DNA of 61,384 nucleotides, counting the filler, from Nanobdellota archaeon (GTDB taxonomy: Archaea; Nanobdellota; Nanobdellia; Woesearchaeales; CAZZGN01): the NCBI GenBank assembly GCA_051819665.1. It is 4 parts of 4 records of this genome, joined end to end, with 100 filler letters (N's around TTAATTAATTAA, not from the genome) between each part and the next. Parts side by side here need not be neighbours in the genome. Positions count along the whole stretch, not along the records: positions 1 to 15,931 come from JBNJDG010000023.1; 3 more parts are not named here. One strand, 5' to 3'. This document shows, piece after piece, positions 5,599 through 61,144 of the stretch. The translations under genes and the position numbers were made by a program. The stretch's first letter is position 1. Each line of letters begins with the position of its first letter. The notes below the pieces were generated by a model. That model saw only the letters and a program-made list of their open reading frames with translations. It had not been told where the DNA came from and made no database searches.

Positions 5599-6366
5599 TT
5601 ATCGGTCTTTGACCCTGCTCCCGCCAGGGGGAATCATCCTTATGATCTCATCAAGGTCCCCTCCGAGCTTCTTCTTAGCAAGTTTGGCCACATCAGAAGT
5701 CTTCTTCGAGCCCGGCTGGATCACGAATACCTTATCAGAGAACTGCTTTACAGAATCAACAGTACCAACTATAACCTTCTCCCCATCGAAACCTAAAGAA
5801 AGCTCGACCCTCGGCTCAAGATAAGTGTTCTTCCCCCTCACCATGAAACTTCCTTTGGGCATGAACTCTCCCGATTCAGCTTCTTTGCTTACCTGATCAG
5901 GCTGGGCATAGAAAACATCGAGAGTGGCAAGACCTTCCGCCCATGCTTTTGAATAGGAAGCTGTTACCTGGGCTGTCTCCTCGATGCTCTTCTCCCCTAT
6001 CTCTTTCCCCTCTGATTTGATGACGAAGAAAGGGGAGCCGGCCATATCAGTATGGAAGATAAGATCATCCTTATCAGTATGCTTCTTGACGACAATCTCG
6101 TTAGTGGTAGCATCCCTGCCACCTATACAAAGGAAACCCTCACTTGTGAAGAACCAACGGAATTTCTCATACCACTGTTTCTTTCTGAGGATTGTTCTCT
6201 CTTCCTCTTCCGCAGGTTCTTCCTCTTCCTTCTTCTCAAGTTTCTCCTTGGATTTTTCCAGCGCAGTCCTCGCACCTTCAAGCTTTTTCTTCATCCTCTT
6301 CGCCTTGTCAAAATAGTCAGAGGCGTTCTGCTCGACGGTCTGGTCAAGGTCTATGGTTATCTTCAT
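5599..6366 (-). CDS. NFACT RNA-binding (DUF814) domain protein, short Rqc2-like
   Basis: QNASDYFDKAK, WYEKFRWF, GGRDATTNE, FHTDMAGSPF, GSFMVRG motifs. Confidence 0.88.
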   Translation of the reverse strand: MKITIDLDQTVEQNASDYFDKAKRMKKKLEGARTALEKSKEKLEKKEEEEPAEEEERTILRKKQWYEKFRWFFTSEGFLCIGGRDATTNEIVVKKHTDKDDLIFHTDMAGSPFFVIKSEGKEIGEKSIEETAQVTASYSKAWAEGLATLDVFYAQPDQVSKEAESGEFMPKGSFMVRGKNTYLEPRVELSLGFDGEKVIVGTVDSVKQFSDKVFVIQPGSKKTSDVAKLAKKKLGGDLDEIIRMIPPGGSRVKDR

Positions 6367-6414
6367 AAACTCAGGATAATCTGCATCATATAAAAATGTT
6401 TACTCCAAAATTTA

Positions 6415-6434
6415 TAACCACTTATTAGTGGTTA
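6415..6434. promoter_or_regulatory. Palindrome TAACCACT-N4-AGTGGTTA between divergent promoters
   Basis: Perfect 8-bp inverted repeat flanked by TATA-like elements in the 6367-6476 intergenic region. Confidence 0.45.
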
Positions 6435-6476
6435 AAAATAGCAAGTTTTAAATATCAAAACACCATCCCAAGAGAT

Positions 6477-7250
6477 ATGTTAGACCTATTAGTAGAGATC
6501 ATGCTCCAGCCGAAGGACGATACAATAACCACAAAACCTCTCGAGGTCCAGATGAACGAGATCAAGCCGAAAGAATATAAAGAAGAGGTAAGGACTTTCG
6601 AAAGGCCCGAAGAAGACAATCCAAAAAATTATAATATCCCTCCCGAAGCCATCAAAGAATTCTACAGGAATCATGACGGGAAGGTCACGGAGGAAGAGAA
6701 AAAGGATTTCATGAAGGAAGATATCGATGAGATCCTCAGCCATTACAATATAGAAAAGAGAGACTCTTTCCCTGACAAGTTTTCCGATAAGGCAGGCACG
6801 CTCATCTTTGCCTATAATTGGGATGATAAAAATACAAGAATGAGTTCTATAAAATTCAGGGCCCATGCAGAATTCTTCAAGGATAAGATGGATTTCATAT
6901 ATATTGAAGGCACCGAAAATCTTCCTGATAGCATAAATATCAAAGAGACAGGATATGTTCTGTTATCAAAGTACGATATCCATGAGGGGGAAAAGCCGGA
7001 AGACGGAAAAGAACAGAAGATAATCGACCATTCAAACTCTATCGTTGACAAGACAGAAGATATTGAGAGAGACATAGAAAACGAAAGGGAGAGATGGATC
7101 AAGCCCAATGTGTTCTACATGCAGAACAATATCTTTAAGGATTCCTATGCACGTTTTGAAGGCGGAGATGAGCTCATAAACAAGGCCATGATATACGACC
7201 TGAAGAAAGACCTCTTTCTCGCACCCATGGAAAACCACAATTTCAAATGA
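6477..7250 (+). CDS. Hypothetical protein
   Basis: 257-aa ORF with host-like codon usage and an upstream TTTAAATA box. Confidence 0.7.
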   Translation: MLDLLVEIMLQPKDDTITTKPLEVQMNEIKPKEYKEEVRTFERPEEDNPKNYNIPPEAIKEFYRNHDGKVTEEEKKDFMKEDIDEILSHYNIEKRDSFPDKFSDKAGTLIFAYNWDDKNTRMSSIKFRAHAEFFKDKMDFIYIEGTENLPDSINIKETGYVLLSKYDIHEGEKPEDGKEQKIIDHSNSIVDKTEDIERDIENERERWIKPNVFYMQNNIFKDSYARFEGGDELINKAMIYDLKKDLFLAPMENHNFK

Positions 7251-11523: not shown

Positions 11524-12771
11524 TTAATTATTCTTACTTTTTCTCTCTACATCCAAAGGACTTATATCACTTCTTATTGCTTTGACTTCCCAATAAAATT
11601 CCTGAGAGTTGTCTCCCTTATAATTTTCATCTATCTTTACAACAAATTCTCCGTCAGTAATCTCTCCGTCAACATACAAAGGACTCCATCCATTCTTAGG
11701 TGTGAGCTGAACAGTTCTGTTGTCTTCCCTTGTTAATTCTTCAAAATACTCCGGTAATGAAACAGTTGCTTTTCCGTCTTCAAGCTTTGCTTCTCCTCTA
11801 TAAAAGACAGCTGCCTCAGGACCCTCAACTGAAGCATGAACCAACTCAGAATTATTTTTTGTAGGATGGTCTATCACAAAGTTTTTAGTGCCCCAGGCTT
11901 CTACATCTTCTTCTACATATAAATCTTCCTCTTTATAAACCTGGAAGGTATCACCAACATCTATGTTTGAGCCACCATAATCTATCTCAAACCAGTCATA
12001 ACCTGTTTGACTCCAGGAAGAACTGTCGCCTGCTGTAGTTATTTCATAAGCATTTCCTGATTCAGCCCCACTAGTCATCAAGACATAATATCCCTGAGGA
12101 TTACCAGAATCAGGAACAGGACTAGGGACTATATCTATAGTAAAATCGATATAATTATCACCCTGAACAGAATTTATAGTAACATCAGATGTATATACAC
12201 CTTCACTTGCTACATGAAGTTTACTAGAAGGGCTGTCTGTCCCGATGCCGACGTTTCCTCCTGTAATATAAGAATCTGCTTCCGCATCCATAAATACTTT
12301 ATTCGTTCCTGTGTTATCCTCTAATACCATCCTCCCCCTTCTACTTCCTGAAACACCACCAAGAGTTAAATCTGTTCTTATATTTCCATTTTCATCCCTA
12401 ATAACAAGCCCTTGGGCATTTTCATCTGGAATTTTTAAATCTAATAATTTCTCTGGACTCGTTGTGCCGATGCCTACGTTTCCTTTACTTGAATCTACAA
12501 AAAAATCACTGGTTCCTACACTAAAATTATAATCTCCTATTTGGACATTAGCATCGCAGAACTTGTTCATTAAATCAGAATACTGTATATCATCTGGCAC
12601 ATCTAATCCGTCCCAGTAATCTGAAGAATTTAGGTCTGTTTTTAAAGAGTCATCTGGATTTATATGAACAGGAGAATATTGTCCACCAGAAGCGTTATAT
12701 CCATAAAGTATGGAAACATTTGAGTCTGCTGCTGAAATTACATTGGTTAACATAACAGCTAATAAAAGCAT
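11524..12771 (-). CDS. Tail-fibre/adhesin-like protein with GNVGIGT motifs and a C-terminal chaperone-like domain
   Basis: Hydrophobic N-terminus, two GNVGIGT motifs, C-terminal KNFVIDHP...LVHASVEGPE...YRG...W-V-AIR domain; start may lie at 12815 with a 1-nt frameshift. Confidence 0.75.
   Translation of the reverse strand: MLLLAVMLTNVISAADSNVSILYGYNASGGQYSPVHINPDDSLKTDLNSSDYWDGLDVPDDIQYSDLMNKFCDANVQIGDYNFSVGTSDFFVDSSKGNVGIGTTSPEKLLDLKIPDENAQGLVIRDENGNIRTDLTLGGVSGSRRGRMVLEDNTGTNKVFMDAEADSYITGGNVGIGTDSPSSKLHVASEGVYTSDVTINSVQGDNYIDFTIDIVPSPVPDSGNPQGYYVLMTSGAESGNAYEITTAGDSSSWSQTGYDWFEIDYGGSNIDVGDTFQVYKEEDLYVEEDVEAWGTKNFVIDHPTKNNSELVHASVEGPEAAVFYRGEAKLEDGKATVSLPEYFEELTREDNRTVQLTPKNGWSPLYVDGEITDGEFVVKIDENYKGDNSQEFYWEVKAIRSDISPLDVERKSKNN
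12455..12483 (-). repeat. Exact 29-bp repeat, copy 1 (coding strand GGAAACGTAGGCATCGGCACAACGAGTCC)
   Basis: Identical to 13908-13936 in a different gene; flanking bases differ. Confidence 0.9.
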
Positions 12772-12804
12772 AAATGCTATTCCTCCACATCCTTTAGTTT
12801 TTCT

Positions 12805-13290
12805 TTATTTGTCATTTTCCTTAAATATCTTTTCGTTTTCGTAGTCTTTTCTGATTCCTCTCACATGGAAATCAACTTCTGTTTTTTCAGAAGATTTAAT
12901 TATAAATCCTGTTTCATTCTTTTCAAAAAACCCGACATCTGCTAAAGAGCCTACAGGGCTAACTGTTACATGATAATCCTCTTTTTCTGACAATACATAA
13001 ACAAAATGCTTTGGGAATTCTACATAGGTTTCATCATTTACATAAGTGTTATTGGTCCATTCAACAACAACTTTTCCTGATTCTGACGAATAATAAACTA
13101 TTTCTGAAGTTTCATTATAATCCTCTACAAAACTAACAGTCCCTGTTCTCGTAATATCTCCTTGAACATCCAACTTCGCTTCTGACCCCGTTGTCCCGAT
13201 ACCTACATTGCCTCCGGAATTTATCCATGAATCTCCATTTCTAACAAATTTGGCTATTCCCCCTATTTTTAATTTATCTTTTGTTTTCAT
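12805..13290 (-). CDS. Truncated fibre-like protein (GNVGIGT motif plus chaperone-like C-terminal domain)
   Basis: 161 aa; C-terminal domain aligns by eye with that of 11524..12771; no hydrophobic signal segment. Confidence 0.65.
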   Translation of the reverse strand: MKTKDKLKIGGIAKFVRNGDSWINSGGNVGIGTTGSEAKLDVQGDITRTGTVSFVEDYNETSEIVYYSSESGKVVVEWTNNTYVNDETYVEFPKHFVYVLSEKEDYHVTVSPVGSLADVGFFEKNETGFIIKSSEKTEVDFHVRGIRKDYENEKIFKENDK

Positions 13291-13291
13291 T

Positions 13292-15445
13292 TTACCACGT
13301 TACAACTGCTTCTTGACTTATATAAGTGCTATCTTTAGCGTTAACTTGGAAATTTCTTCTTGATCCATCTTTACCCGTTGCAAGTATCACAATAGTTGAG
13401 GAGTCTAATCTTTCTGCTCCGTGAATGTGCAGAGGATAACCCGTCATATCTTGAGCTGAACCTGAAAGAATCATAGTGCTCCCTTCAGAATCGAGATATC
13501 TGGCTAAAGCCAAATACCAGTCATCTTGTGTCATAGTAGTAGTTGTATCTATTCTATCAGTTATGGCTCTCCCTTTACTTGCATTTATTTTACCTCTCAC
13601 ATCTAATTTATTCTGTGGGCTCGTTTCTCCGATGCCGACGTTGCCTTCTACAATAACACCATTTGTTGGTGCTTCTACTGTTGGATCACTCTTTTCCAGC
13701 CAACTGCCTCCAAAAACACCTTGTGTAGTATAAAATCCACCATAGGATAGACTTGGTTTTTTGAATGAAGCTGAATGATCTCCTCCAGCGTAAAAATCCA
13801 CTGAACCGGAAGTTACACCGAAACCATAAATATCAGATCCACCATTCTCATATAATGCAAGCTTACCAGATCCAAAAAGATCTGTTCCGAAACTTAAAGG
13901 TTCACTCGGACTCGTTGTGCCGATGCCTACGTTTCCAGCTACGTTTAAATCTCCGCTCATACTATCTCCGGATTCATTCACCCAGTTATCATTGCTTTCG
14001 TCAATGTTGAATGAGTTAGCATAAACTGTCCCATCAACCTCCAAATCATCTGCAATCAAAGCGTCGTTGGTCCCATCTATATTGTCAGCGGTTCCACCTC
14101 CAATATCAAGGGAAGCGGAAGGACTCGTCGTCCCTACACCTACATCTCCCCCCATCACAGACATTGTATTGTCCTGAATGACATTGTAAAAACTATAATC
14201 AAGACCTACAGCAACTGAAGACTGTCCTGAAGCTTCAATATCTCTTCCTAAAGCAGTGGAACCATAACCCCCTGAAGCAGTAGTAGAATCCCCTAAAGCA
14301 GTGGAACCATAACTTCCTGAAGCAACAGTTTCATATCCTATAGCAGTGGAACCACGACCCCCTGAAGAAGTAGAATAACCACCTATCGCTGTGGAGCTCC
14401 AATCTCCTGAAGCAGTTGTAGATTTCCCTAAAGCAACAGCACCATAATCTCCTGAAGCTTCAGTCCCTTCCCCTAAAGAGACAGCATTTATGCCGGATAC
14501 GACACTGCTTTCGCCCCCGGCAATAATGCCGGTGTTGCTTCCTTTTATGTCAAGCTGGGCTGATGGGTTGGTTGTGCCGATGCCGACGTCTCCATCAACA
14601 TTCAGATTCCCGGACATGTTATCTCCGGATTCATTCACCCAGATATCAGTAATAGCAGAGGCATCAATATTATTAATACCAGAACCGTCCCCGTAGATGA
14701 CTCCGTCAACCTCGAGATCATCAGCAACAAGGATGTCATTAGTCCCGTCGATATTATCTGCAGTTCCTCCACCCACATCAAGTAAAGCGGAAGGACTCCC
14801 TGTCCCAATACCAACATCACCGCCTTCCTGGACAAAGATCCCGTCACTACCGGCTTGGTCATAAAGCCCGAGGCCGCTGCTGTTTATAGCCCTCACTACA
14901 CTCGTTTTGACCTCATCAGTTGACATCTCATTTATACTCAGATAGGAGCTGCCATTTACCTCAAGATCTCCCTCTATGAACAGATCTCCCTCATAAGGGA
15001 CCTCAAGATTGGAAGGTGTAGGGCAATTACCATCATCACAGACGAAGAAAGAGCCATTACTAACCTGGATATCCTCTGACATCGTATCTCCGGACAAGCT
15101 CTCGAATCTCCTCCTGTCATTACCATTCCAGTCAATATCATGCCAGCTTCCCGAATGGTTCACCTGAAGGTCCATCCAGTAATACTGGTTATAATTAAGG
15201 TCGAGTGCAGTATCATTGCCTAAGACAACATCAAAATAGCCGTCCTTCACAGCATCATAAAAGACCTTATCATAGATAAGTTCCCCTCCTGAAGCCTCGC
15301 TCCAGATAGAAACATTGATATTACCATCATACACAAGCTCCCCGTCATGGTCAACCTTACCCTGGAAAGGGATCAACTGCTCAACGCCCAGTACAGGCAT
15401 CGCCAGCAACACCACGAAAGAGAGCAACAAAAGATATCTTCTCAA
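13292..15445 (-). CDS. Secreted fibre/adhesin-like protein with five G(N/D)VG(I/V)G motifs and YadA-head-like repeats
   Basis: TTG start after a G-run RBS, signal peptide, repeated GNVGIGT, ASG..S.ALG repeats. Confidence 0.8.
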   Translation of the reverse strand: MRRYLLLLSFVVLLAMPVLGVEQLIPFQGKVDHDGELVYDGNINVSIWSEASGGELIYDKVFYDAVKDGYFDVVLGNDTALDLNYNQYYWMDLQVNHSGSWHDIDWNGNDRRRFESLSGDTMSEDIQVSNGSFFVCDDGNCPTPSNLEVPYEGDLFIEGDLEVNGSSYLSINEMSTDEVKTSVVRAINSSGLGLYDQAGSDGIFVQEGGDVGIGTGSPSALLDVGGGTADNIDGTNDILVADDLEVDGVIYGDGSGINNIDASAITDIWVNESGDNMSGNLNVDGDVGIGTTNPSAQLDIKGSNTGIIAGGESSVVSGINAVSLGEGTEASGDYGAVALGKSTTASGDWSSTAIGGYSTSSGGRGSTAIGYETVASGSYGSTALGDSTTASGGYGSTALGRDIEASGQSSVAVGLDYSFYNVIQDNTMSVMGGDVGVGTTSPSASLDIGGGTADNIDGTNDALIADDLEVDGTVYANSFNIDESNDNWVNESGDSMSGDLNVAGNVGIGTTSPSEPLSFGTDLFGSGKLALYENGGSDIYGFGVTSGSVDFYAGGDHSASFKKPSLSYGGFYTTQGVFGGSWLEKSDPTVEAPTNGVIVEGNVGIGETSPQNKLDVRGKINASKGRAITDRIDTTTTMTQDDWYLALARYLDSEGSTMILSGSAQDMTGYPLHIHGAERLDSSTIVILATGKDGSRRNFQVNAKDSTYISQEAVVTW
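13908..13936 (-). repeat. Exact 29-bp repeat, copy 2
   Basis: Identical to 12455-12483. Confidence 0.9.
14206..14505 (-). repeat. 45-bp (15-aa) tandem repeat, YadA/Hep_Hag head-like
   Basis: CCTGAAG recurs at 14226, 14271, 14316, 14361, 14406 and 14451; protein ASGxYGSTALGxxTx. Confidence 0.85.
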
Positions 15446-15471: not shown

Positions 15472-15627
15472 TTATTCCATGTATTCTTTGAGGCTCTGGT
15501 TCTTCAGGCTTTCTCTCATAAGGCTCTCTACCTTAGTGGAAATCTTCATGCCGTTCGTCTTGCAATACTCTTTGAAGGCCTCAAAGACCTCTTCATCGAT
15601 AGTCATGGATATTTTCTTTTTCGCCAT
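15472..15627 (-). CDS. Small ribbon-helix-helix (CopG/MetJ-like) DNA-binding protein, 51 aa, absent from the ORF track
   Basis: Manual translation MAKKKISMTIDEEVFEAFKEYCKTNGMKISTKVESLMRESLKNQSLKEYME; alternating beta-strand then two helices; TATA-like TTTAAAT upstream. Confidence 0.8.
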   Translation of the reverse strand: MAKKKISMTIDEEVFEAFKEYCKTNGMKISTKVESLMRESLKNQSLKEYME

Positions 15628-16033: not shown

Positions 16034-19000
16034 CTCCTTGTAATACTCCTTATCTGTACTACTTCTGTCTATGCTATAGGCAACCCTGCTGCAGAATTCT
16101 GTACTGATAACGGTAATGACTATAGGAAGAGAACCGACAGCGAAGGTAATGAGTTCGGCGTATGCATTGTCGATGGAAACTTAGTGGATGCCTGGGAGCA
16201 TTTCAGGAAGAACAAGGGAAGTAAAGAAGAAAAAACCTTCTCTCTGATGTCGACTGATGAAGAGCCGGAAGGCCTCAAGTTCAAACAAAGCACCTCAGAA
16301 CCAGATATAACTTACGAGGAAGATTCGCTGAAGGTTAGCTCTGGTTCAGGAGAGACCGATTACAGGGAAGGCAACTGGACAACACCGGTGAAGAACCAAG
16401 GCGAATGTGGTGCATGCTGGGCTTTCTCTGTCATAGGAGTCGCAGATACTATGATGAACCTAAACATCAACGATTCTGACTATGACATGGACCTTTCTGA
16501 ACAGCATCTGACTTCCTGTGATGATAGCTGTTATGATTCCGAGCACTGTCAAGAAGGATGTTCTGGAGGATATCTTGATCTTGCATTCCAGTTTTCAGTC
16601 GATAACGGCATTTTAGAAGAATCATGCTTCCCTTATTCAGAGAGTGACGAACAATGCTCGAACAAATGCAGTGACTGGGAAAATCAACTTTCCGGCGTTG
16701 ATGATTATCTTAAAGTTAACAATAACATTGATTCAGTAAAGTATGCTCTGGATAAATTCGGGCCGGTGAGCATGGCGATGGAAGCATGTGAAAAATTCAA
16801 GAATTACACAGGAGGTGTATATTACAACGAATCCGAACCTGACAGCTGCGGTGGCCATGCGATTGTGTTCGTAGGTTATAATGATACAGGGGAGTATTTT
16901 ATTGGGAAGAACAGCTGGGGGACTAGCTGGGGAGAAGATGGTTACTTCAGGATTCATTATAATGAGAGTGCCGGCGATTATACTGAACTAAAGAACACAC
17001 ATAAAATCCTCTACCTTGATGATGCATACGTGATAAACAACACTGACACAGACAACGATAATTTTACTGATAAGGAAGATAATTGCCCCAAAACAGCTGG
17101 AAATAACAGCGGTTGTCCTGACACTACACCTCCAACAATACACAACATAACCCTCTCTGATTATATATTCAAGAACGGGAGCATGGTTGCGGTTATTGTT
17201 AATGCAACAGACAATTACTCTGTCTCCTCTGTTGAAGCGGAAGGCATAAGCCTCAATCAGAACGGGAGTATCTGGAAGGATAACATCTCCCTGAGTGAGC
17301 CTCCTCTTGAAATCAATGCAACAGACATTAACGGAAATTCGGTGATCAATGACTCCGTAAACTTCACCATCGACGACAAAGCACCAGAGATAGATAATAT
17401 TTCTATAGAACCAAAGATAGCAGGGAACAATACGAACATAAGCCTTGCTTTCGATTATAGAGAGGATCATTTCAGGGAGGCAAATATAACTATTGAAGAC
17501 AAAGCCTTCCATCTGGATAATCATACCAATAACAGCATGAACTTCTCCTATCATGTCAACGGGAGTTTAGGAGAAGGAAATCATAGCATCTCCATGACAA
17601 TCCATGATAAAGCAGGGAATAACAGAACAAGGAACAGCTCATTGATAATCGACCTCTACGGCCCTGTAATAGGATCCATAGAGCCGGAAAAGGAGAGGGT
17701 CAGGACCAATGACACCATCGGAATCATTGTTAATATAACAGAAACCTTCCTTAAGAATGTAACTGCCAATGACGAGGAGCTTGACTGTAATGAAGAGCTA
17801 TGCAATGGAACAATAAAGATCAACAAGTCAACAATCGAAGTATTCGCTGAGGATATCCTCAGCAATAATACCACAATGAACGAGACAATCATTATAGATG
17901 ACAAAGCACCAGAGATAAATATCTCTGCTCCCTCTTATCACAACTCTTACTATGTACCTGTCAATATAACATCAGATGAGAATGTAACATGCAAAATCAA
18001 TGATAAAGATCATGAGCTCAAAAAGAACACCAGTCATAAAAGATATATCTACAGCAAAAACGGGTCAATCAATGCCAGCTGTGAAGACCTGGCCGGGAAT
18101 CCTTCTTTAAACAATACTTCAACCATCATAGATACGGAAAGACCCGAAGTCAACATAACCATAAATGAATCAGGCAAGTATCATAACGAGCCTGTGTTGA
18201 TCAATATAACGGCAACGGACAATAACGAGACCAAAACAGCCCGATGGTATAACAACACATGGGTGAATGAGAGCGAGTTCGTCCTCGATCACAGCCTGGA
18301 AGACGACAGGCTCTATTACAGTGCGATCGACATGGCAGGCAACACCGCTTTCAGAAAAAGCATAGAGCTCGTCTATGATGATGAGAAACCAAAAATCTGG
18401 AACATAAGCGCTGAAAGGAACCTGGCACCTAACCAGGAATTCAGGATTGAAATCTTCACTGATGGTGGTACAGGGAACATAAGCCTTGACAACAAGACCT
18501 ATGAACTGACTGAAGATATGCGATCAGAGCTCAAGGCACCTGAGGAGGATGGAGAATACAAGGCAGATATAAACATCTCCGATCTTGCCGGTAATACTGC
18601 AGGAAGATCTTTCAACATAACCGTGAACTCTTCAGTCCCTTCCATAATACCGAATATAACAAACAATAGTTACATAGAGAACAATTCCCTGCTCGAAGTG
18701 AATCATACAGGAGAACAAGCATGGTACAATATCTCGGGTAAAATAGAGAACCTGACCGGCTCTATAACGATTAACAAGACAACAAACATAACCTTCCACA
18801 GCAATAACTCGGAATACAACACAACGAAAGAATACCGATACATCATCGATGAGAAGAAGCCTGAAATAGATATAACCTCTCATTCAAACAATTCAAGGAT
18901 AAATGGTACATTGGATATAAGAACCAATATCACTGATGAAGCCGGGATAGAGAGCAGAAGCTTACTGATAGACGATGAGCCCCAGCAGGATTTCAGAACA

Positions 19001-20200
19001 GATACCCACCTGCTTACAGACGGGCTTCATAATTTCAGTGTATCTGCTGAAGATAAGACAGGTAATAGAAGAACACTCACTTACAGCTTCAACATCACCA
19101 ATACGATAGAAGAAACCTTTGACACAAAAGGCGATCCCAATTCAAGCACAGCTTATGCTGAAAACCTGAGCAGAATCATGGTAGAGAGGATCGAAGGCCT
19201 TAATTCAAGCAACATAACCGTAAAGAAGAAAGATATCGAGACAGACAAACTCGGAAAGATAATAGGAAGAGCAGATATTAACGCTTCTACTGCCTTCAAT
19301 TCGACAATAATAGCCACAATACCGGTATCAACAGGAAAAGACAACATAACGTTTTACGCAGACCATGGCAATGGACTTGAGAGAGCAGAGTTCAGTTATA
19401 TAGACACTGCCGAATACCACCGTTTTTCTATAAAGACAGAAGAATACTCCGACTTCGTATGGGGTGAATATCCTTCCTGTCCCGAGAATATAGATTACAA
19501 GTGTTACTGCGGTGATGAGCTCAGGGAAGACGGATACTGCTGCTCAGGCGACTGGCAGAGCTCTTCCTGTGAAGATGACACAGAGGACAGCTCAAGCCCT
19601 TCAGGTGGCGGAACTTCCAGCGGCGGAGGAGGCTTAAGCCCATCTGTCTCTGAGAAGAACATCAGCGAAGGTATAACCAAAACACTCTATTACCCTGAGA
19701 ACGGGGATATTATAGACCTGAGCTCCTACAATACAAGGCTTGAGAATATCACCATCCTAACAGAAGAGGAGTTCAGGAAGCTTGAGTTCTCCATAAAAGC
19801 AGGAGAAGAGAGATTCACGATAAACTCTTCCGAAGACATAATGCTCAATATAACCCTTAAGGACCTTGAAGGGAAGACCATCAATGGTGAGGAGATTAAA
19901 AAATATAATGAAGCATTCTACTTAATATCAGAACCGGGAGAATTCATTATTGAAGAAAAGATCACTGAAACAGCCAAAACCAGCAGAGATAATGAAACAG
20001 AAAATACCACTGAAGAAGTGAACAAGAGTGAAGTAAAAGACAGAGAGAACGAAAGTGAGCTCAGTGTCTCATGGGAGAACCAAACAGGAAAAAAGAATGA
20101 TGATGAGGTTAATGAAGGATTCTCCCCCTATATCATAGGAGCGATACTTTTAGGCTTGATAATAGCCATACTCCTGATAATATGGAAGATAAGAAGATGA
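16034..20200 (+). CDS. Large membrane-anchored papain-like (C1A) cysteine peptidase with N-terminal DUF333-like domain and Ig-like repeats (5' partial)
   Basis: Frame open from 16034: LLVILLICTTSVYA signal then NPAAEFC...G.E.GVC...DAWEHFR; catalytic QGECGACWAF, GGHAI, KNSWGTSWGEDGYF; repeated D..AP.I and D.AGN motifs; C-terminal TM plus KIRR. Confidence 0.9.
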   Translation, partial: LLVILLICTTSVYAIGNPAAEFCTDNGNDYRKRTDSEGNEFGVCIVDGNLVDAWEHFRKNKGSKEEKTFSLMSTDEEPEGLKFKQSTSEPDITYEEDSLKVSSGSGETDYREGNWTTPVKNQGECGACWAFSVIGVADTMMNLNINDSDYDMDLSEQHLTSCDDSCYDSEHCQEGCSGGYLDLAFQFSVDNGILEESCFPYSESDEQCSNKCSDWENQLSGVDDYLKVNNNIDSVKYALDKFGPVSMAMEACEKFKNYTGGVYYNESEPDSCGGHAIVFVGYNDTGEYFIGKNSWGTSWGEDGYFRIHYNESAGDYTELKNTHKILYLDDAYVINNTDTDNDNFTDKEDNCPKTAGNNSGCPDTTPPTIHNITLSDYIFKNGSMVAVIVNATDNYSVSSVEAEGISLNQNGSIWKDNISLSEPPLEINATDINGNSVINDSVNFTIDDKAPEIDNISIEPKIAGNNTNISLAFDYREDHFREANITIEDKAFHLDNHTNNSMNFSYHVNGSLGEGNHSISMTIHDKAGNNRTRNSSLIIDLYGPVIGSIEPEKERVRTNDTIGIIVNITETFLKNVTANDEELDCNEELCNGTIKINKSTIEVFAEDILSNNTTMNETIIIDDKAPEINISAPSYHNSYYVPVNITSDENVTCKINDKDHELKKNTSHKRYIYSKNGSINASCEDLAGNPSLNNTSTIIDTERPEVNITINESGKYHNEPVLINITATDNNETKTARWYNNTWVNESEFVLDHSLEDDRLYYSAIDMAGNTAFRKSIELVYDDEKPKIWNISAERNLAPNQEFRIEIFTDGGTGNISLDNKTYELTEDMRSELKAPEEDGEYKADINISDLAGNTAGRSFNITVNSSVPSIIPNITNNSYIENNSLLEVNHTGEQAWYNISGKIENLTGSITINKTTNITFHSNNSEYNTTKEYRYIIDEKKPEIDITSHSNNSRINGTLDIRTNITDEAGIESRSLLIDDEPQQDFRTDTHLLTDGLHNFSVSAEDKTGNRRTLTYSFNITNTIEETFDTKGDPNSSTAYAENLSRIMVERIEGLNSSNITVKKKDIETDKLGKIIGRADINASTAFNSTIIATIPVSTGKDNITFYADHGNGLERAEFSYIDTAEYHRFSIKTEEYSDFVWGEYPSCPENIDYKCYCGDELREDGYCCSGDWQSSSCEDDTEDSSSPSGGGTSSGGGGLSPSVSEKNISEGITKTLYYPENGDIIDLSSYNTRLENITILTEEEFRKLEFSIKAGEERFTINSSEDIMLNITLKDLEGKTINGEEIKKYNEAFYLISEPGEFIIEEKITETAKTSRDNETENTTEEVNKSEVKDRENESELSVSWENQTGKKNDDEVNEGFSPYIIGAILLGLIIAILLIIWKIRR

Positions 20201-57716: not shown

Positions 57717-58553
57717 TTGAAAATGAAAAAAATATTCATAATGGCCGTAATTTCAATGTTCATCGTTATCGCCCTTGTTGGTGCTGAAGAGAGGGACTCT
57801 TGTGCAGAATTACTGAATTCTTCTGGATCTGGTGAAGATCTTAGTGACCTGAATTATTGTGAGCAGACCGCTTTTGATATGAATACGGAGGGTTGCGGTG
57901 AGCAGAGCATATGCTTTAATGATACCGAACTTCCTGGTCCGGAAGATGCGAAAGCTCCGTTCGGTCATGGTAATGCTACTATTATGGTAAATCCTGATGA
58001 TAGGAAGGTCCAGGGCCATTTTTTCGATGAGCTTTTCCAGAGAACTCCTGTATATTCTTTGTTCGGATTTGAGACCAATCATATGAGCGAACTCGGGGAA
58101 ACAGATTTTACAGGTGATGTCACATTGACATCGGGGGCAGAGCTCTGTACGGAAGATACCTGCCTCGGTGACTGGTCAGAGACGAAAGGTCTTTATGTAG
58201 GGAAGAGCTCTGCTGAGACTGATGGGGATCCTGAAGATGCAGGTAATATGAGCTATGATAAGATGAATGAGATCTGCCAGGAAGACTATGCGGGCTCTCA
58301 CCTATGCACAGAGACCGAGATGATAAATTCTGTCAACAATAAGGATATTTCTTCCGAAAGCGGCCTTTTGTGGGTCTCGGGCGGAGCTCCCGGCTATCTT
58401 GCCAATGCCAATGACTGTAATGGCTGGACAAAGAATTCAGAGGATTTCTTCGGTAAGGTATGGGATTTCGGTGAAGGTAACAAAGGAGCAGGATATATGG
58501 CGAGGTGCACAGCCAGTTTAAACCTTGCATGTTGTAAGGAGGGTGGACAATGA
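57717..58553 (+). CDS. Secreted protein with a C-terminal C-type-lectin-fold (DUF1554-like) domain
   Basis: Signal peptide; IC...Y.GSHLC...E, WV, NDC.GWT, C...L.LACC. Confidence 0.7.
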   Translation: MKMKKIFIMAVISMFIVIALVGAEERDSCAELLNSSGSGEDLSDLNYCEQTAFDMNTEGCGEQSICFNDTELPGPEDAKAPFGHGNATIMVNPDDRKVQGHFFDELFQRTPVYSLFGFETNHMSELGETDFTGDVTLTSGAELCTEDTCLGDWSETKGLYVGKSSAETDGDPEDAGNMSYDKMNEICQEDYAGSHLCTETEMINSVNNKDISSESGLLWVSGGAPGYLANANDCNGWTKNSEDFFGKVWDFGEGNKGAGYMARCTASLNLACCKEGGQ

Positions 58554-61144
58554 GAAAAGCAATCACGATTCTGGTTACAATGCTAATGATGGTCTCTTTC
58601 GCATCGGCTGCCACGGTCTATGAAGACGGCACTCTATGGGCTGACCATCCGGATAATTGTCCTCAGAGTTATAATGGTGTGACCTGTAAGGCTGAGAGTG
58701 ATACGGCCAGAGTTTGTGGTCTTGATGATGATGGAGCTCCTTTATGTTATGACTGGGGCTCTCCTTCGGCTCCGTCAAGTTCAGTCTATTATGCTAAGGT
58801 AAGCGGTCTTGATTCAGGCTATGTGGTTGATTGTCTCTCGAATGATGGTAATGAGCCCGCTTGTGACACCAGGGGAAACTTCAGGTGTAATGTTGATGGT
58901 TCCAGTTGCGGTTCGCAGAACAGGAGGGCACAATGTGACTCCTGGTCGAAAGTTGGCGACAGTTTGAGTTGCGGTGACTGTCTCCCTGGTTATCATGATT
59001 GTGATGGTGACGCAGGTGTTTGTGAGATAGAAGACGGTTCCCCGGGACCTTATGAGAATACTGTATATGATGGTTGTGACGGTAATCTTTTGCCTGCAAA
59101 AGGAGATGTTGTCTGTGAATCTGGTTATTCAGACAGTGATGGAGATCTGACGAATGGCTGTGAGATAAGGAATGGAGAATCCTGTACTACAAACTCGAAC
59201 CATGATCTCGGGCAGGATCTCAGCGGTATTTGTACAGGAACAGACCCGGGAAGCAATACAGGTACTAACCAGGAAGGTAATGGCTGTATCTGTGGTGTGG
59301 ATTGTGTGGAATATCCTGATGGCTCTATACAATGTACTGCTGCGAGCAGTGGATGGAGAAAGGACGGAGATGTCGTTTACTCTAATAATAACATAGGTGT
59401 GAACACTGACGTGCCCGATACAGAAATGGACGTTGAAGGTAATGTTGGTGCAATGCAGTATTGTGATGAGAATGGTGCTAATTGTACGGATATAGGTGAT
59501 GTGATGTCCTCTTCGACTGATGACTGGGTCAACGAAGGGAATGATGAGCTTGGGAATCAACTTGAATGGGACAGCACTAATAATGAGGTAGATGTCATTG
59601 AGGGCTCTGGCTCAGGGCTTGATGCAGACCTTTTGGACGGACAACATTGGTCAGATATACAGGATTGGGTAAATACAAATGATGGAGATTATTGTTCTGA
59701 AGGCATCTGTGATGGAAACCTTCGTGTCAAAGGGGATTTTGTGACTGAAGGCAATTCTTACCTTGCTAAGGCTGCCAAGATAGACGGCGATATGCTCCCG
59801 AATAAGACGGATCTGTTCAGTGTGGGCAGCAGTTCTCTCAAATGGCGTAATGGGTATTTCTCTAATGAGCTGTATGTAGACGGGAATGTAGGCATCGGGA
59901 CGACGAATCCTGCTACTAAACTGGATGTTGCAGGTAAAGTGAGTGTAGATGGGGTGAAGTTATCGGAGTCCGGTTATTCTCAACCGGATGGTACTATTGA
60001 ATTAGCATATTCGGATTCAGAGAAAAATTTGTCCTATCTAGATGGATCAGGAAATGTTCATACCACAGATGTGAAGGTAGGGGAGATTGGCAGCACAGGA
60101 GATTTTAATGGTGATGGTTTAGATGAGATTGCTTACAGTGATAAGGATGATAATCTTAAGTATATGACTCCTTCTGGTCACATAGTTGACACGGGTGAGA
60201 AAGCGTTGCAAGTAGGGGGCATGGGCGATGTTGATAGAGATGGATATAATGAGATATTTTACCGAGATACGGATGACAATTTGAAGTATATAAATATGAA
60301 GGGAGAGGTAGTTGATACTGGAGAGAATCCTGTGGCTTCAGTTGGCGGCACAGGGGATATAGATGGCGATGGTTCTCCTGAAGTGGTTTATGCTACCTCG
60401 TCCTCTGATCCACCATCATTACAATATATTGGATATAACTCTGCTCTTAATGAAATGAGAGTAGAGGGGTACCTGAATGCAGAGACCTATGTTCTTGGCG
60501 ACATAGGAGATTTTGATGGAGATGGTGATATAGATATACCTTATATTTTACCAAGTGATGGTAGTCTGAGGTATGCCGATGATTCAGGCAATGATGTTGA
60601 TACAGGAGTAGATGCACATCAAACTACAGGCAATGCAATGGCTGATTTTAATAGCGATGGAAATTTAGAGATTGCCTATAATAGCAAAAATGATGGTACT
60701 ATAAAATACATTGGTTCCTCGGGTAATGTAGAGGATACAGGTGTAGGTGCTTACAAGATTATCGGGGCGGGAGATTTTATTGGTAATACAGACAAGAAAC
60801 TGAAAATCTCTGATAGATTGGATATGGAAGATAATAAATTGGTTAATCTGGAGGAACCGAGTAATCCCCAGGATGCAGCTACGAAGTCTTATGTTGATAA
60901 CAGAGGGGTTGACGGTTCGGGAACGGCTGGCTATATACCTATGTTTAAAGGGGATTATGGTGCAGACTCCAATAAACTGACAAATTCAAATATTTATTAT
61001 GATGGTTTGAAGCAGGTGGGTATAGGGAAACAGCCAGATGTACATGGTTCTACATTACAGGTGAACGGAAGTATAGGTGCAGACTCGGTCTCATCTGATT
61101 CATACACCTCAAACAGCGGGAACGTAGTGATAAAACTTCCCTGA
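58550..61144 (+). CDS. Secreted Cys-rich fibre/adhesin-like protein with GNVGIGT motif and FG-GAP-like repeats
   Basis: Signal peptide, Cys-rich N-terminal part (CDGD...CE, D.DGDLTNGCE), DADLLDG, GNVGIGTTNP, five (G/A)D(F/V/I)(N/D)xDGxx(E/D) repeats, P...QDAATKSYVD neck. Confidence 0.8.
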   Translation: MRKAITILVTMLMMVSFASAATVYEDGTLWADHPDNCPQSYNGVTCKAESDTARVCGLDDDGAPLCYDWGSPSAPSSSVYYAKVSGLDSGYVVDCLSNDGNEPACDTRGNFRCNVDGSSCGSQNRRAQCDSWSKVGDSLSCGDCLPGYHDCDGDAGVCEIEDGSPGPYENTVYDGCDGNLLPAKGDVVCESGYSDSDGDLTNGCEIRNGESCTTNSNHDLGQDLSGICTGTDPGSNTGTNQEGNGCICGVDCVEYPDGSIQCTAASSGWRKDGDVVYSNNNIGVNTDVPDTEMDVEGNVGAMQYCDENGANCTDIGDVMSSSTDDWVNEGNDELGNQLEWDSTNNEVDVIEGSGSGLDADLLDGQHWSDIQDWVNTNDGDYCSEGICDGNLRVKGDFVTEGNSYLAKAAKIDGDMLPNKTDLFSVGSSSLKWRNGYFSNELYVDGNVGIGTTNPATKLDVAGKVSVDGVKLSESGYSQPDGTIELAYSDSEKNLSYLDGSGNVHTTDVKVGEIGSTGDFNGDGLDEIAYSDKDDNLKYMTPSGHIVDTGEKALQVGGMGDVDRDGYNEIFYRDTDDNLKYINMKGEVVDTGENPVASVGGTGDIDGDGSPEVVYATSSSDPPSLQYIGYNSALNEMRVEGYLNAETYVLGDIGDFDGDGDIDIPYILPSDGSLRYADDSGNDVDTGVDAHQTTGNAMADFNSDGNLEIAYNSKNDGTIKYIGSSGNVEDTGVGAYKIIGAGDFIGNTDKKLKISDRLDMEDNKLVNLEEPSNPQDAATKSYVDNRGVDGSGTAGYIPMFKGDYGADSNKLTNSNIYYDGLKQVGIGKQPDVHGSTLQVNGSIGADSVSSDSYTSNSGNVVIKLP

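Follow-up and report, generated by a model that had tools for sequence, protein, structure and literature searches.

A 29-bp motif as a probable in-frame recombination joint between modules of mosaic fibre genes in a Nanobdellota archaeon

We analyzed a 61,384-nt window of DNA, filler included, from a Nanobdellota archaeon of the order Woesearchaeales (GCA_051819665.1). The window consists of four contigs from one 1.12-Mb genome (96% complete), with N spacers between them. A cluster of three fibre-like genes (11524–15445) and a fourth gene on another contig carry nine copies of a 29-bp motif that encodes GNVGIGTTSP and its variants. We read this motif as, probably, an in-frame homologous-recombination joint in mosaic genes for trimeric fibres. 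Its DNA is conserved beyond the need of the protein, and only inside the motif. The unexpected part of the finding is that one spelling of the motif is over-represented across archaeal, bacterial, and viral loci.

A repeat search of the window identified eight 29-nt copies on the minus strand of contig C23: copy 1 (GDVGIGTGSP, 14793–14821), copy 2 (GDVGIGTTNP, 14565–14593), copy 3 (GDVGVGTTSP, 14121–14149), copy 4 (GNVGIGTTSP, 13908–13936), copy 5 (GNVGIGETSP, 13617–13645), copy 6 (GNVGIGTTGS, 13184–13212), copy 7 (GNVGIGTTSP, 12455–12483), and copy 8 (GNVGIGTDSP, 12230–12258). Copy 9 (GNVGIGTTNP, 59882–59910, plus strand) lies on contig C26. It was recovered by a six-frame scan of the genome with a loose peptide pattern, which gave 14 matches, 9 of them of the fibre type; copies 3 and 6 are among those recovered by both searches. 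These coordinates exactly reproduce the nine reported in an earlier note on this DNA. The in-frame G[N/D]VG[I/V]G copies are spread over four fibre-like genes (five, one, two, and one), and all eight in the cluster are direct, in frame, and on one strand of three open reading frames (ORFs). At three or fewer mismatches, the common 18-mer of the motif occurs at seven places in the genome, all within the nine fibre-type copies, and no inverted or out-of-frame near-copies of it were found in the genome. Copies 5 and 8 are each one base off this widespread 18-mer.

Copies 4 and 7 are identical at 29/29 positions, while their flanks are alike at only 4/30 and 11/30, confirming what the earlier note had said of this pair. 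The note had also described a core kept by six of nine copies with C-ending codons. The core, GGCATCGG, is present in 6/9 copies, copy 2 among them; the C-ending spelling is lacking in copy 3 and in copy 1, which has a T/G-ending spelling. The neighboring modules are poorer in third-base G+C, as had been claimed: G+C makes up 47/81 third bases inside motifs and 74/270 in the codons that flank them, and third-position G+C (GC3) of the segments after motifs is 0.15–0.39 vs 0.50 genome-wide.

Synonymous conservation beyond codon bias had been set beforehand as the test of a DNA-level role, and it was found and is confined to the motif. Codon-usage nulls of 20,000 draws each, which ignore the shared ancestry of copies, were based on genome or four-gene usage. 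Mean synonymous identity was 0.46 vs 0.29 under the genome null (P = 1e-4) or 0.33 under the four-gene null (P = 1e-3). A 29/29 pair arose in 1 (genome) and 0 (four-gene) null draws, and six cores arose in 0 and 0. For window pairs with unrelated flanks, synonymous identity was 0.43 vs 0.33 expected at codons 0–5, 0.59 vs 0.31 at codons 6–8, and 0.35 vs 0.37 at downstream codons 9–17. Codon-blind sets from elsewhere, with expectations taken from codon use in the same ORF, gave observed/expected values at codons 0–5 of 0.49/0.38 (43 archaeal loci), 0.48/0.38 (61 GTDB loci), and 0.64/0.41 (67 viral loci); codons farther downstream depart from expectation by no more than 0.01–0.05. Agreement of the motif between loci is near expectation (0.34/0.35, 0.36/0.32, and 0.34/0.37), so homogenization is local. 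Genomes hold their own favored motif spellings, and convergence within a genome is also seen on AT-rich ones.

Codons 0–8 are biased alike in archaeal, viral, and GTDB loci, toward GGC, AAC, GTC, ATC, GGG, ACG, ACG, and AGT (AAC weakly in archaea). With one motif taken per locus, five consensus codons were counted 89 vs 40 times (58 loci), 288 vs 150 times (134 loci), and 187 vs 94 times (141 loci); the z values of 9–14 for this excess overstate it, as the loci are kin and some overlap. One explanation is a passive joint, at which recombination occurs but nothing maintains the DNA, the spelling being the product of protein constraint, recent duplication, and import from G+C-rich donors. This would suit a peptide with a structural role as a capping loop (Caulton et al. 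2024, PMC10769870), consensus-like copies that are commoner in genes with higher GC3, and window pairs of which 35/36 are only 17–24/29 alike. However, the conserved downstream residues P9, K12, L13, V15, and G17 show little or no codon bias (mostly chi-square near the degrees of freedom), and the same amino-acid pairs outside motifs show far weaker codon shifts. The flanks of consensus-like copies have no excess of G+C, and 29/29 pairs with unrelated flanks occur both here and in another genome (G296). This motif-limited signal largely refutes a passive joint, which we consider unlikely.

Exchange of modules is associated with the motif. Among 493 motif-bearing ORFs, blocks of at least 95% identity start at a motif in 12/16 cases and end at one in 8/18, vs a null of 6–7% that rises to about 16% once alignment run-through is allowed (sum of bins). 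Of blocks with 80–95% identity, 18–29% are bounded at the motif vs a null of 5–6%. Motif-anchored families share the downstream flank only (n = 32), the upstream flank only (n = 30), or both (n = 12). The ratio of one-flank to both-flank families is 62:12 at the motif, vs 21:25, 15:24, 15:26, 7:19, and 11:23 at offset anchors; seven of the 12 both-flank families show complete identity, as tandem copies or sequences fetched twice would. Orthologous loci were compared in two congeneric genomes, G296 and G395, in which the DNA around two syntenic fibre genes is 78–90% identical over about 13 kb. The fibre interiors have only two blocks in common, of 146 and 154 bp, and each ends at a motif; nearly all modules have been replaced between these orthologues. 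In the window, a 240- to 255-bp module is duplicated from motif to motif. Relatives of the module at 97–171 of the 415-amino-acid (aa) protein are motif-bounded elsewhere and have other neighbors, and relatives of the YadA-like module end at a motif in other archaeal genes, again beside other neighbors. The idea that modules cross over at the motif is borne out by these block ends, one-sided families, and swapped interiors and, weakly, by contigs of one sequencing run (X4, below).

The points of exchange are dispersed. For 25 dereplicated one-sided pairs from other loci, a small sample, a spread from −1 to +39 has a log likelihood (lnL) of −462 vs −518 for the best fixed point, and a fixed crossover point weighs 0.2 or less in mixture models. 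Third-base identity of upstream-sharing pairs falls between codons 5 and 6, which makes the first 18 bases the commonest exchange zone. The scans behind the locus sets give lower bounds. These results bear on a second explanation, in which a dedicated recombinase, site-specific or sequence-directed, would recognize the common spelling in trans and exchange cassettes as in shufflons or integrons, other spellings being decayed sites. A dedicated target would account for one viral gene (L416, found through a search for that very spelling) in which 19 of 21 copies are identical over 18 bases between mostly unrelated modules with GC3 of 0.19–0.45. It would also account for full-consensus copies in numbers well over expectation (4/121 vs 0.0, 9/243 vs 0.0, and 14/211 vs 0.1) and for the partial dyad symmetry of the common spelling across 29 bp. 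The dispersion of exchange points argues against it, as does the between-genome synonymous identity at expectation. Moreover, the dyad partners covary no more than controls (odds ratio for 9–21 of 1.9 vs 1.5; 12–18 anti-correlated), and the same spelling occurs on contigs with capsid genes of nucleocytoplasmic large DNA viruses (NCLDV; 10/75 viral loci examined).

A recombinase to act on such a site was not apparent either. No serine resolvase, reverse transcriptase (PF00078), or IS110 element was found in the genome (96% complete), and the sole tyrosine recombinase above the cut-off lies on contig C32, beside a ribosomal-protein-like gene and unlinked to the cluster. No recombinase linked to the cluster was found on its contig, which ends about 490 bp past it. 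The integrase N-terminal family PF13495 is present in 30/40 motif-positive vs 63/96 motif-negative genomes (two unpublished genomes included) and does not track the motif. In a neighborhood survey limited to ORFs of 120–900 aa, tyrosine recombinases occurred in 4/75 viral and 0/40 archaeal neighborhoods, and no recombinase family dominates the 115. A recombinase candidate at L218, a weak phmmer match, turned out to be a RIO kinase. A helix-turn-helix plus nucleotidyltransferase family (PF01909/PF18765) was seen near fibre genes in 9/40 archaeal loci (e.g., L224, 15348–15887) and may simply be common there. The co-occurring tyrosine or serine recombinase and the shufflon-like switching put forward in the earlier note thus did not materialize: the copies are direct, the exchange points dispersed, the spellings mostly particular to each genome, and the integrase family without association, and the low-depth same-species contigs have no alternative joints. 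A recombinase acting in trans on the common spelling is, in our assessment, rather unlikely.

The spelling could alternatively be an RNA- or translation-level signal (a hairpin, or pause or accuracy codons) for co-translational module folding. The common spelling forms a hairpin of −6.3 kcal/mol as DNA, in the lowest 1.1% of uniform synonymous draws, and several of the favored codons are C-ending. Among the 64 G/C-ending encodings, however, this hairpin ranks only in the 16th–31st percentile, no specific covariation was found, and GGG, ACG, and AGT are preferred to GGC, ACC, and AGC at some positions. A folding signal would also leave the breakpoints and the within-genome AT-rich convergence unexplained, and we judge it very improbable. 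A hairpin or palindromic site was rejected as well: dyad symmetry is present, yet the covariation and folding nulls gave no support.

Because no recombinase is linked to or associated with the motif, exchange points are dispersed, and the dyad symmetry is unsupported by covariation or folding, we favor a homology-directed exchange joint. The protein needs a capping loop at every module boundary, as is known for the Bdellovibrio fibres compared below, and for that reason its nine or ten codons are the sole uninterrupted homology, of ~27–29 bp, between otherwise unrelated modules. The length of the motif is about the minimum for RecA-type recombination. Crossovers or conversion tracts anywhere in the block, or at its edge, would then duplicate, delete, reorder, or import whole modules in frame. 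RadA, which is present in the genome with a paralogue, or the recombination system of an incoming virus would supply the enzyme, and a source of foreign modules is likewise something we infer. Copies in one genome do converge, as they would if the same module traffic copies spellings between joints. Modules with commonly spelled borders would exchange more easily, which may be what has favored one G+C-rich spelling across gene pools; the enrichment is observed, and this cause is conjectural. Such exchange would operate over evolutionary time and not as a programmed switch, and its likely benefit, judging from homology, would be varied adhesive tips for binding hosts or surfaces.

The widespread spelling was examined in archaeal, bacterial, and viral sequences. 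The commonest 24-mer among 786 copies is GGCAACGTCGGCATCGGGACGACG, which occurs at 15 loci (nine GTDB, four viral, and two archaeal). A search for the common spelling returned at least 129 viral stretches, and the motif pattern was found in at least 152 viral and at least 152 GTDB stretches. The codon-blind peptide pattern was found in 118/401 genomes of the order (five unpublished genomes included). There was no exact match to the 29-mer of the window in viral contigs, no match in the cultured-phage collection, and no motif match in a same-family genome; a metagenome scan for close relatives gave one weak locus in 28 stretches. One archaeal genome (G347, L225–L227) has 59 pattern matches; the ORFs that hold most of them are giant, from about 2000 to more than 5000 codons long. 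Several contigs with NCLDV-type capsid genes (L456, L461, L434, and others) have several exact copies of the spelling of prokaryotic fibres. In the 21-copy viral fibre gene of L416, an intein (PF14890, E = 4e-16) lies within one module (5700–7021, minus strand). The same-family genome (L527, G001:C64, 5310–7040) keeps the ftsZ-hisS-map order, but at the corresponding place upstream of map it encodes an unrelated, Cys-rich protein of surface type, indicating a slot in which surface genes vary.

A bolder extension, which we regard as possible but doubtful, is that the GNVGIGTTSP codons serve universally as an adapter for recombination. One spelling would be upheld by frequency-dependent module traffic across archaea, bacteria (those of the candidate phyla radiation [CPR] among them), phages, and giant viruses of algae, linking them through one cross-domain library of in-frame fibre modules, possibly with a sequence-directed factor.

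Several observations weigh against a homologous-recombination joint. Only 1/36 window pairs exceeds 24/29, so most have diverged too far for 29-bp recombination to be efficient now. Loci in the exchange and codon sets are not independent, and in the test on 25 pairs a fixed crossover could have been blurred if the motif had since mutated or undergone conversion. The sharing of the spelling with giant-virus-like contigs fits none of the tested mechanisms. ComEC was not found in the genome, which leaves the entry route of incoming DNA without explanation. Four sequencing runs were compared as contigs, at low depth and with rare variants dropped (X1–X3 are labeled RNA yet are contigs). No alternative joints are listed among them, contrary to the expectation of read-level alternative junctions, and no exchange was seen in progress. 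The same-species contigs of X1 and X2, of which 13/14 and 13/15 pieces match at 99% or more, span copies 1, 3, 7, and 8 in the order of the window. In run X4, one contig matches 13860–13938 and another 13908–13986, and each diverges at one of the two borders of copy 4. In the first contig, the module that follows copy 4 stands behind other upstream sequence; in the second, the upstream segment stands before another module. The X4 evidence consists of two single contigs at depth 2–2.7, of which one has no more than 11 loose bases, and both may derive from other organisms or from paralogues. In one X4 contig, the motif ahead of the duplicated module also has another spelling. Because no listed piece bridges copy 4, its join here could itself be chimeric.

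The last point leads to the suspicion of an assembly artefact, with short repeats collapsed or mis-joined in metagenome assembly. Such an error would be in keeping with the X4 breaks at copy 4 and with the lack, among the contigs listed, of any that bridges copies 4, 5, or 6. Against it, five junctions are spanned in the order of the window by contigs of other runs, reading frames are open through all copies, and the same signal is seen at hundreds of loci, some of them in isolate genomes of the GTDB set. The chance that the motif arrangement is an artefact is extremely small.

The fibre joint was compared with known systems that vary surface proteins. Shufflons and tail-fibre invertons (Rci/sfx, Gin/gix, and Cin/cix) use short in-frame sites at which a constant part is connected with one of several alternatives. 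The short in-frame sites within adhesin or fibre genes are similar, but the cluster has no adjacent recombinase, inverted cassettes, or fixed crossover, and no alternative joints in the low-depth same-species contigs. Integron arrays (IntI/attC) have direct repeats between unrelated, compositionally foreign units, as does the cluster. Here, however, the sites are inside one reading frame, there is no covarying hairpin, and the integrase is unlinked; by eye, its sequence is without the IntI-specific insertion that is a hallmark of integron integrases. A diversity-generating retroelement was rejected, as PF00078 had no match in the genome. By the features tested, the fibre joint is not a shufflon, an integron, or a diversity-generating retroelement.

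Closer parallels come from T-even phages and predatory bacteria, and by analogy the joint would act like T-even motif exchange, in proteins resembling the mosaic adhesive trimer (MAT) fibres of Bdellovibrio bacteriovorus. In T-even phages, the genes for distal tail fibres and for the gp38 adhesin undergo exchanges at short conserved motifs or close to them (Trojet et al. 2011, PMC3157838, citing Tetart et al. 1996, 1998). There too, short motifs flank variable segments, adhesins are chimeric, and there is no dedicated recombinase. In our data, short motifs flank variable modules, and exchange points lie in or near the motif (at other loci; here, for the duplicated module and weakly in X4). The present case differs in being a chromosomal cluster of a cellular archaeon, with another motif and fold and with the same joint between all modules and across genes. 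Synonymous-site homogenization and cross-domain spelling are features here that are absent from the consulted part of the Trojet account (PMC3157838). MAT fibres have a capping loop, V-G-G/N-pi-x-x-P-x-x-x-L, and tips that were swapped in evolution (Caulton et al. 2024, PMC10769870). The motif matches that capping-loop consensus, and a signal peptide, a ~130-aa N-terminal domain, and swapped tips may be further points of likeness; a weak match of the 415-aa protein to Bd2133 and its predicted trimer (both below) suggest the same kinship. Unlike the MAT fibres, the fibres here have YadA-like and FG-GAP modules and an archaeal host, and no S74 domain was found in them. A DNA-level mechanism for mosaicism is offered here, and none is given in the consulted part of the Caulton account (PMC10769870). 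Hypervariable regions of prasinoviruses and giant-virus islands carry phage-fibre-like and bacterial-type adhesion genes, for which no motif-level mechanism is given in the consulted parts of the sources (PMC12906663 and PMC13620141). No description of the DNA-level motif signal was found in the literature searched, which did not cover subscription journals.

Fibres rebuilt at a 29-bp joint would offer a concrete, testable route by which host-dependent DPANN archaea and CPR bacteria find or change hosts. At the DNA level, the joint would also explain why MAT-type fibres are mosaic, and module flow between cells and viruses could be mapped with the motif and its spelling as a marker. It is unusual for one spelling to be over-represented in archaeal, bacterial, and viral genes whose base composition differs so widely, and this calls for an explanation even if the mechanism is a known one. 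Of 20 homologs of its Map protein, the only one with a taxonomic name is a Woesearchaeota protein at 54% identity, which, with the small genome, points to a Woesearchaeota-like organism. The archaeon itself is on these grounds presumably host-dependent, and homology suggests a role of its fibres in host attachment.

The largest gene of the cluster encodes a 717-aa fibre-like protein (13292–15445, minus strand) with five motif copies and a match to a phage tail fibre (phrog_9942, E = 6e-8). It has a signal-peptide-like start, a ~130-aa N-terminal domain, the duplicated module, a YadA-like module, and a unique tip. The N-terminal domain is common to other archaeal fibres, and a search toward the Bdellovibrio domain led to unnamed bacterial clusters. 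The first copy of the duplicated module (14571–14824), which starts at motif copy 1 and runs into copy 2, is 71% identical to the second (13914–14152), which runs from copy 3 into copy 4. YadA-head-like 45-nt repeats (14225–14494) lie inside the module between copies 2 and 3. A 161-aa protein (12805–13290, minus strand) has one motif copy and, after it, a C-terminal domain with weak kinship to that of homologs of the 415-aa protein. Its ORF starts one base past the 717-aa stop, reaches the motif after 26 residues, and has no evident signal peptide; the protein might serve as a spare tip module or as a small partner chain. The 864-aa surface-protein-like ORF (58550–61144, plus strand, contig C26) has one motif copy and then an FG-GAP repeat region (60080–60538). 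Judged by eye, only the 717-, 415-, and 864-aa proteins have signal-peptide-like starts. Of the modules that the earlier note had placed after motifs, the YadA-like (YadA-head match, E = 9e-11) and FG-GAP (E = 2e-6) ones were recovered; the chaperone-like tails were not, as no Pfam match to an S74 chaperone domain was found in the fibre proteins of the window.

The third gene of the cluster encodes the 415-aa fibre-like protein (11524–12771, minus strand), with two motif copies. It weakly matches Bdellovibrio Bd2133 (8ond, E = 0.003) and 8ojn (E = 0.23), in alignments that pass through the motif. Its modeled C-terminal domain (11557–11817) is predicted to be a beta-sandwich resembling tailspike and tail-fibre tip domains and not an S74 chaperone. 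The tip model aligns with 7eea_A (Z = 9.3, root-mean-square deviation [rmsd] 2.1, 71 aligned) and 4mtm_A (Z = 7.2, rmsd 2.8, 76 aligned). Foldseek with the alignment-based model gave no match at E ≤ 0.001, and a single-sequence fold with a predicted local distance difference test (pLDDT) score of 38 was discarded. Modeled as three copies, residues 90–415 had a trimer score of 0.88 vs 0.00 for the best control, with contacts agreeing at 91% or more and pLDDT of at least 81. The mark for a trimer is reached by 20/30 solved pairs and 1/23 single chains, and the 415-aa protein was the only one modeled. A homotrimeric fibre is predicted on this basis, although the pass may reflect memory, because like complexes have already been solved.

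Just upstream of the cluster is a gene for a 51-aa Arc-like (ribbon-helix-helix) protein (15472–15627, minus strand; phrog_3180, E = 6e-7), which could regulate it. Overlapping the start of the 864-aa gene is a 278-aa Cys-rich, secreted-looking protein (57717–58553, plus strand) with no PHROG match. A 1338-aa surface protein encoded at 16184–20200 (plus strand) has a papain-family protease domain and several Ig-like domains.

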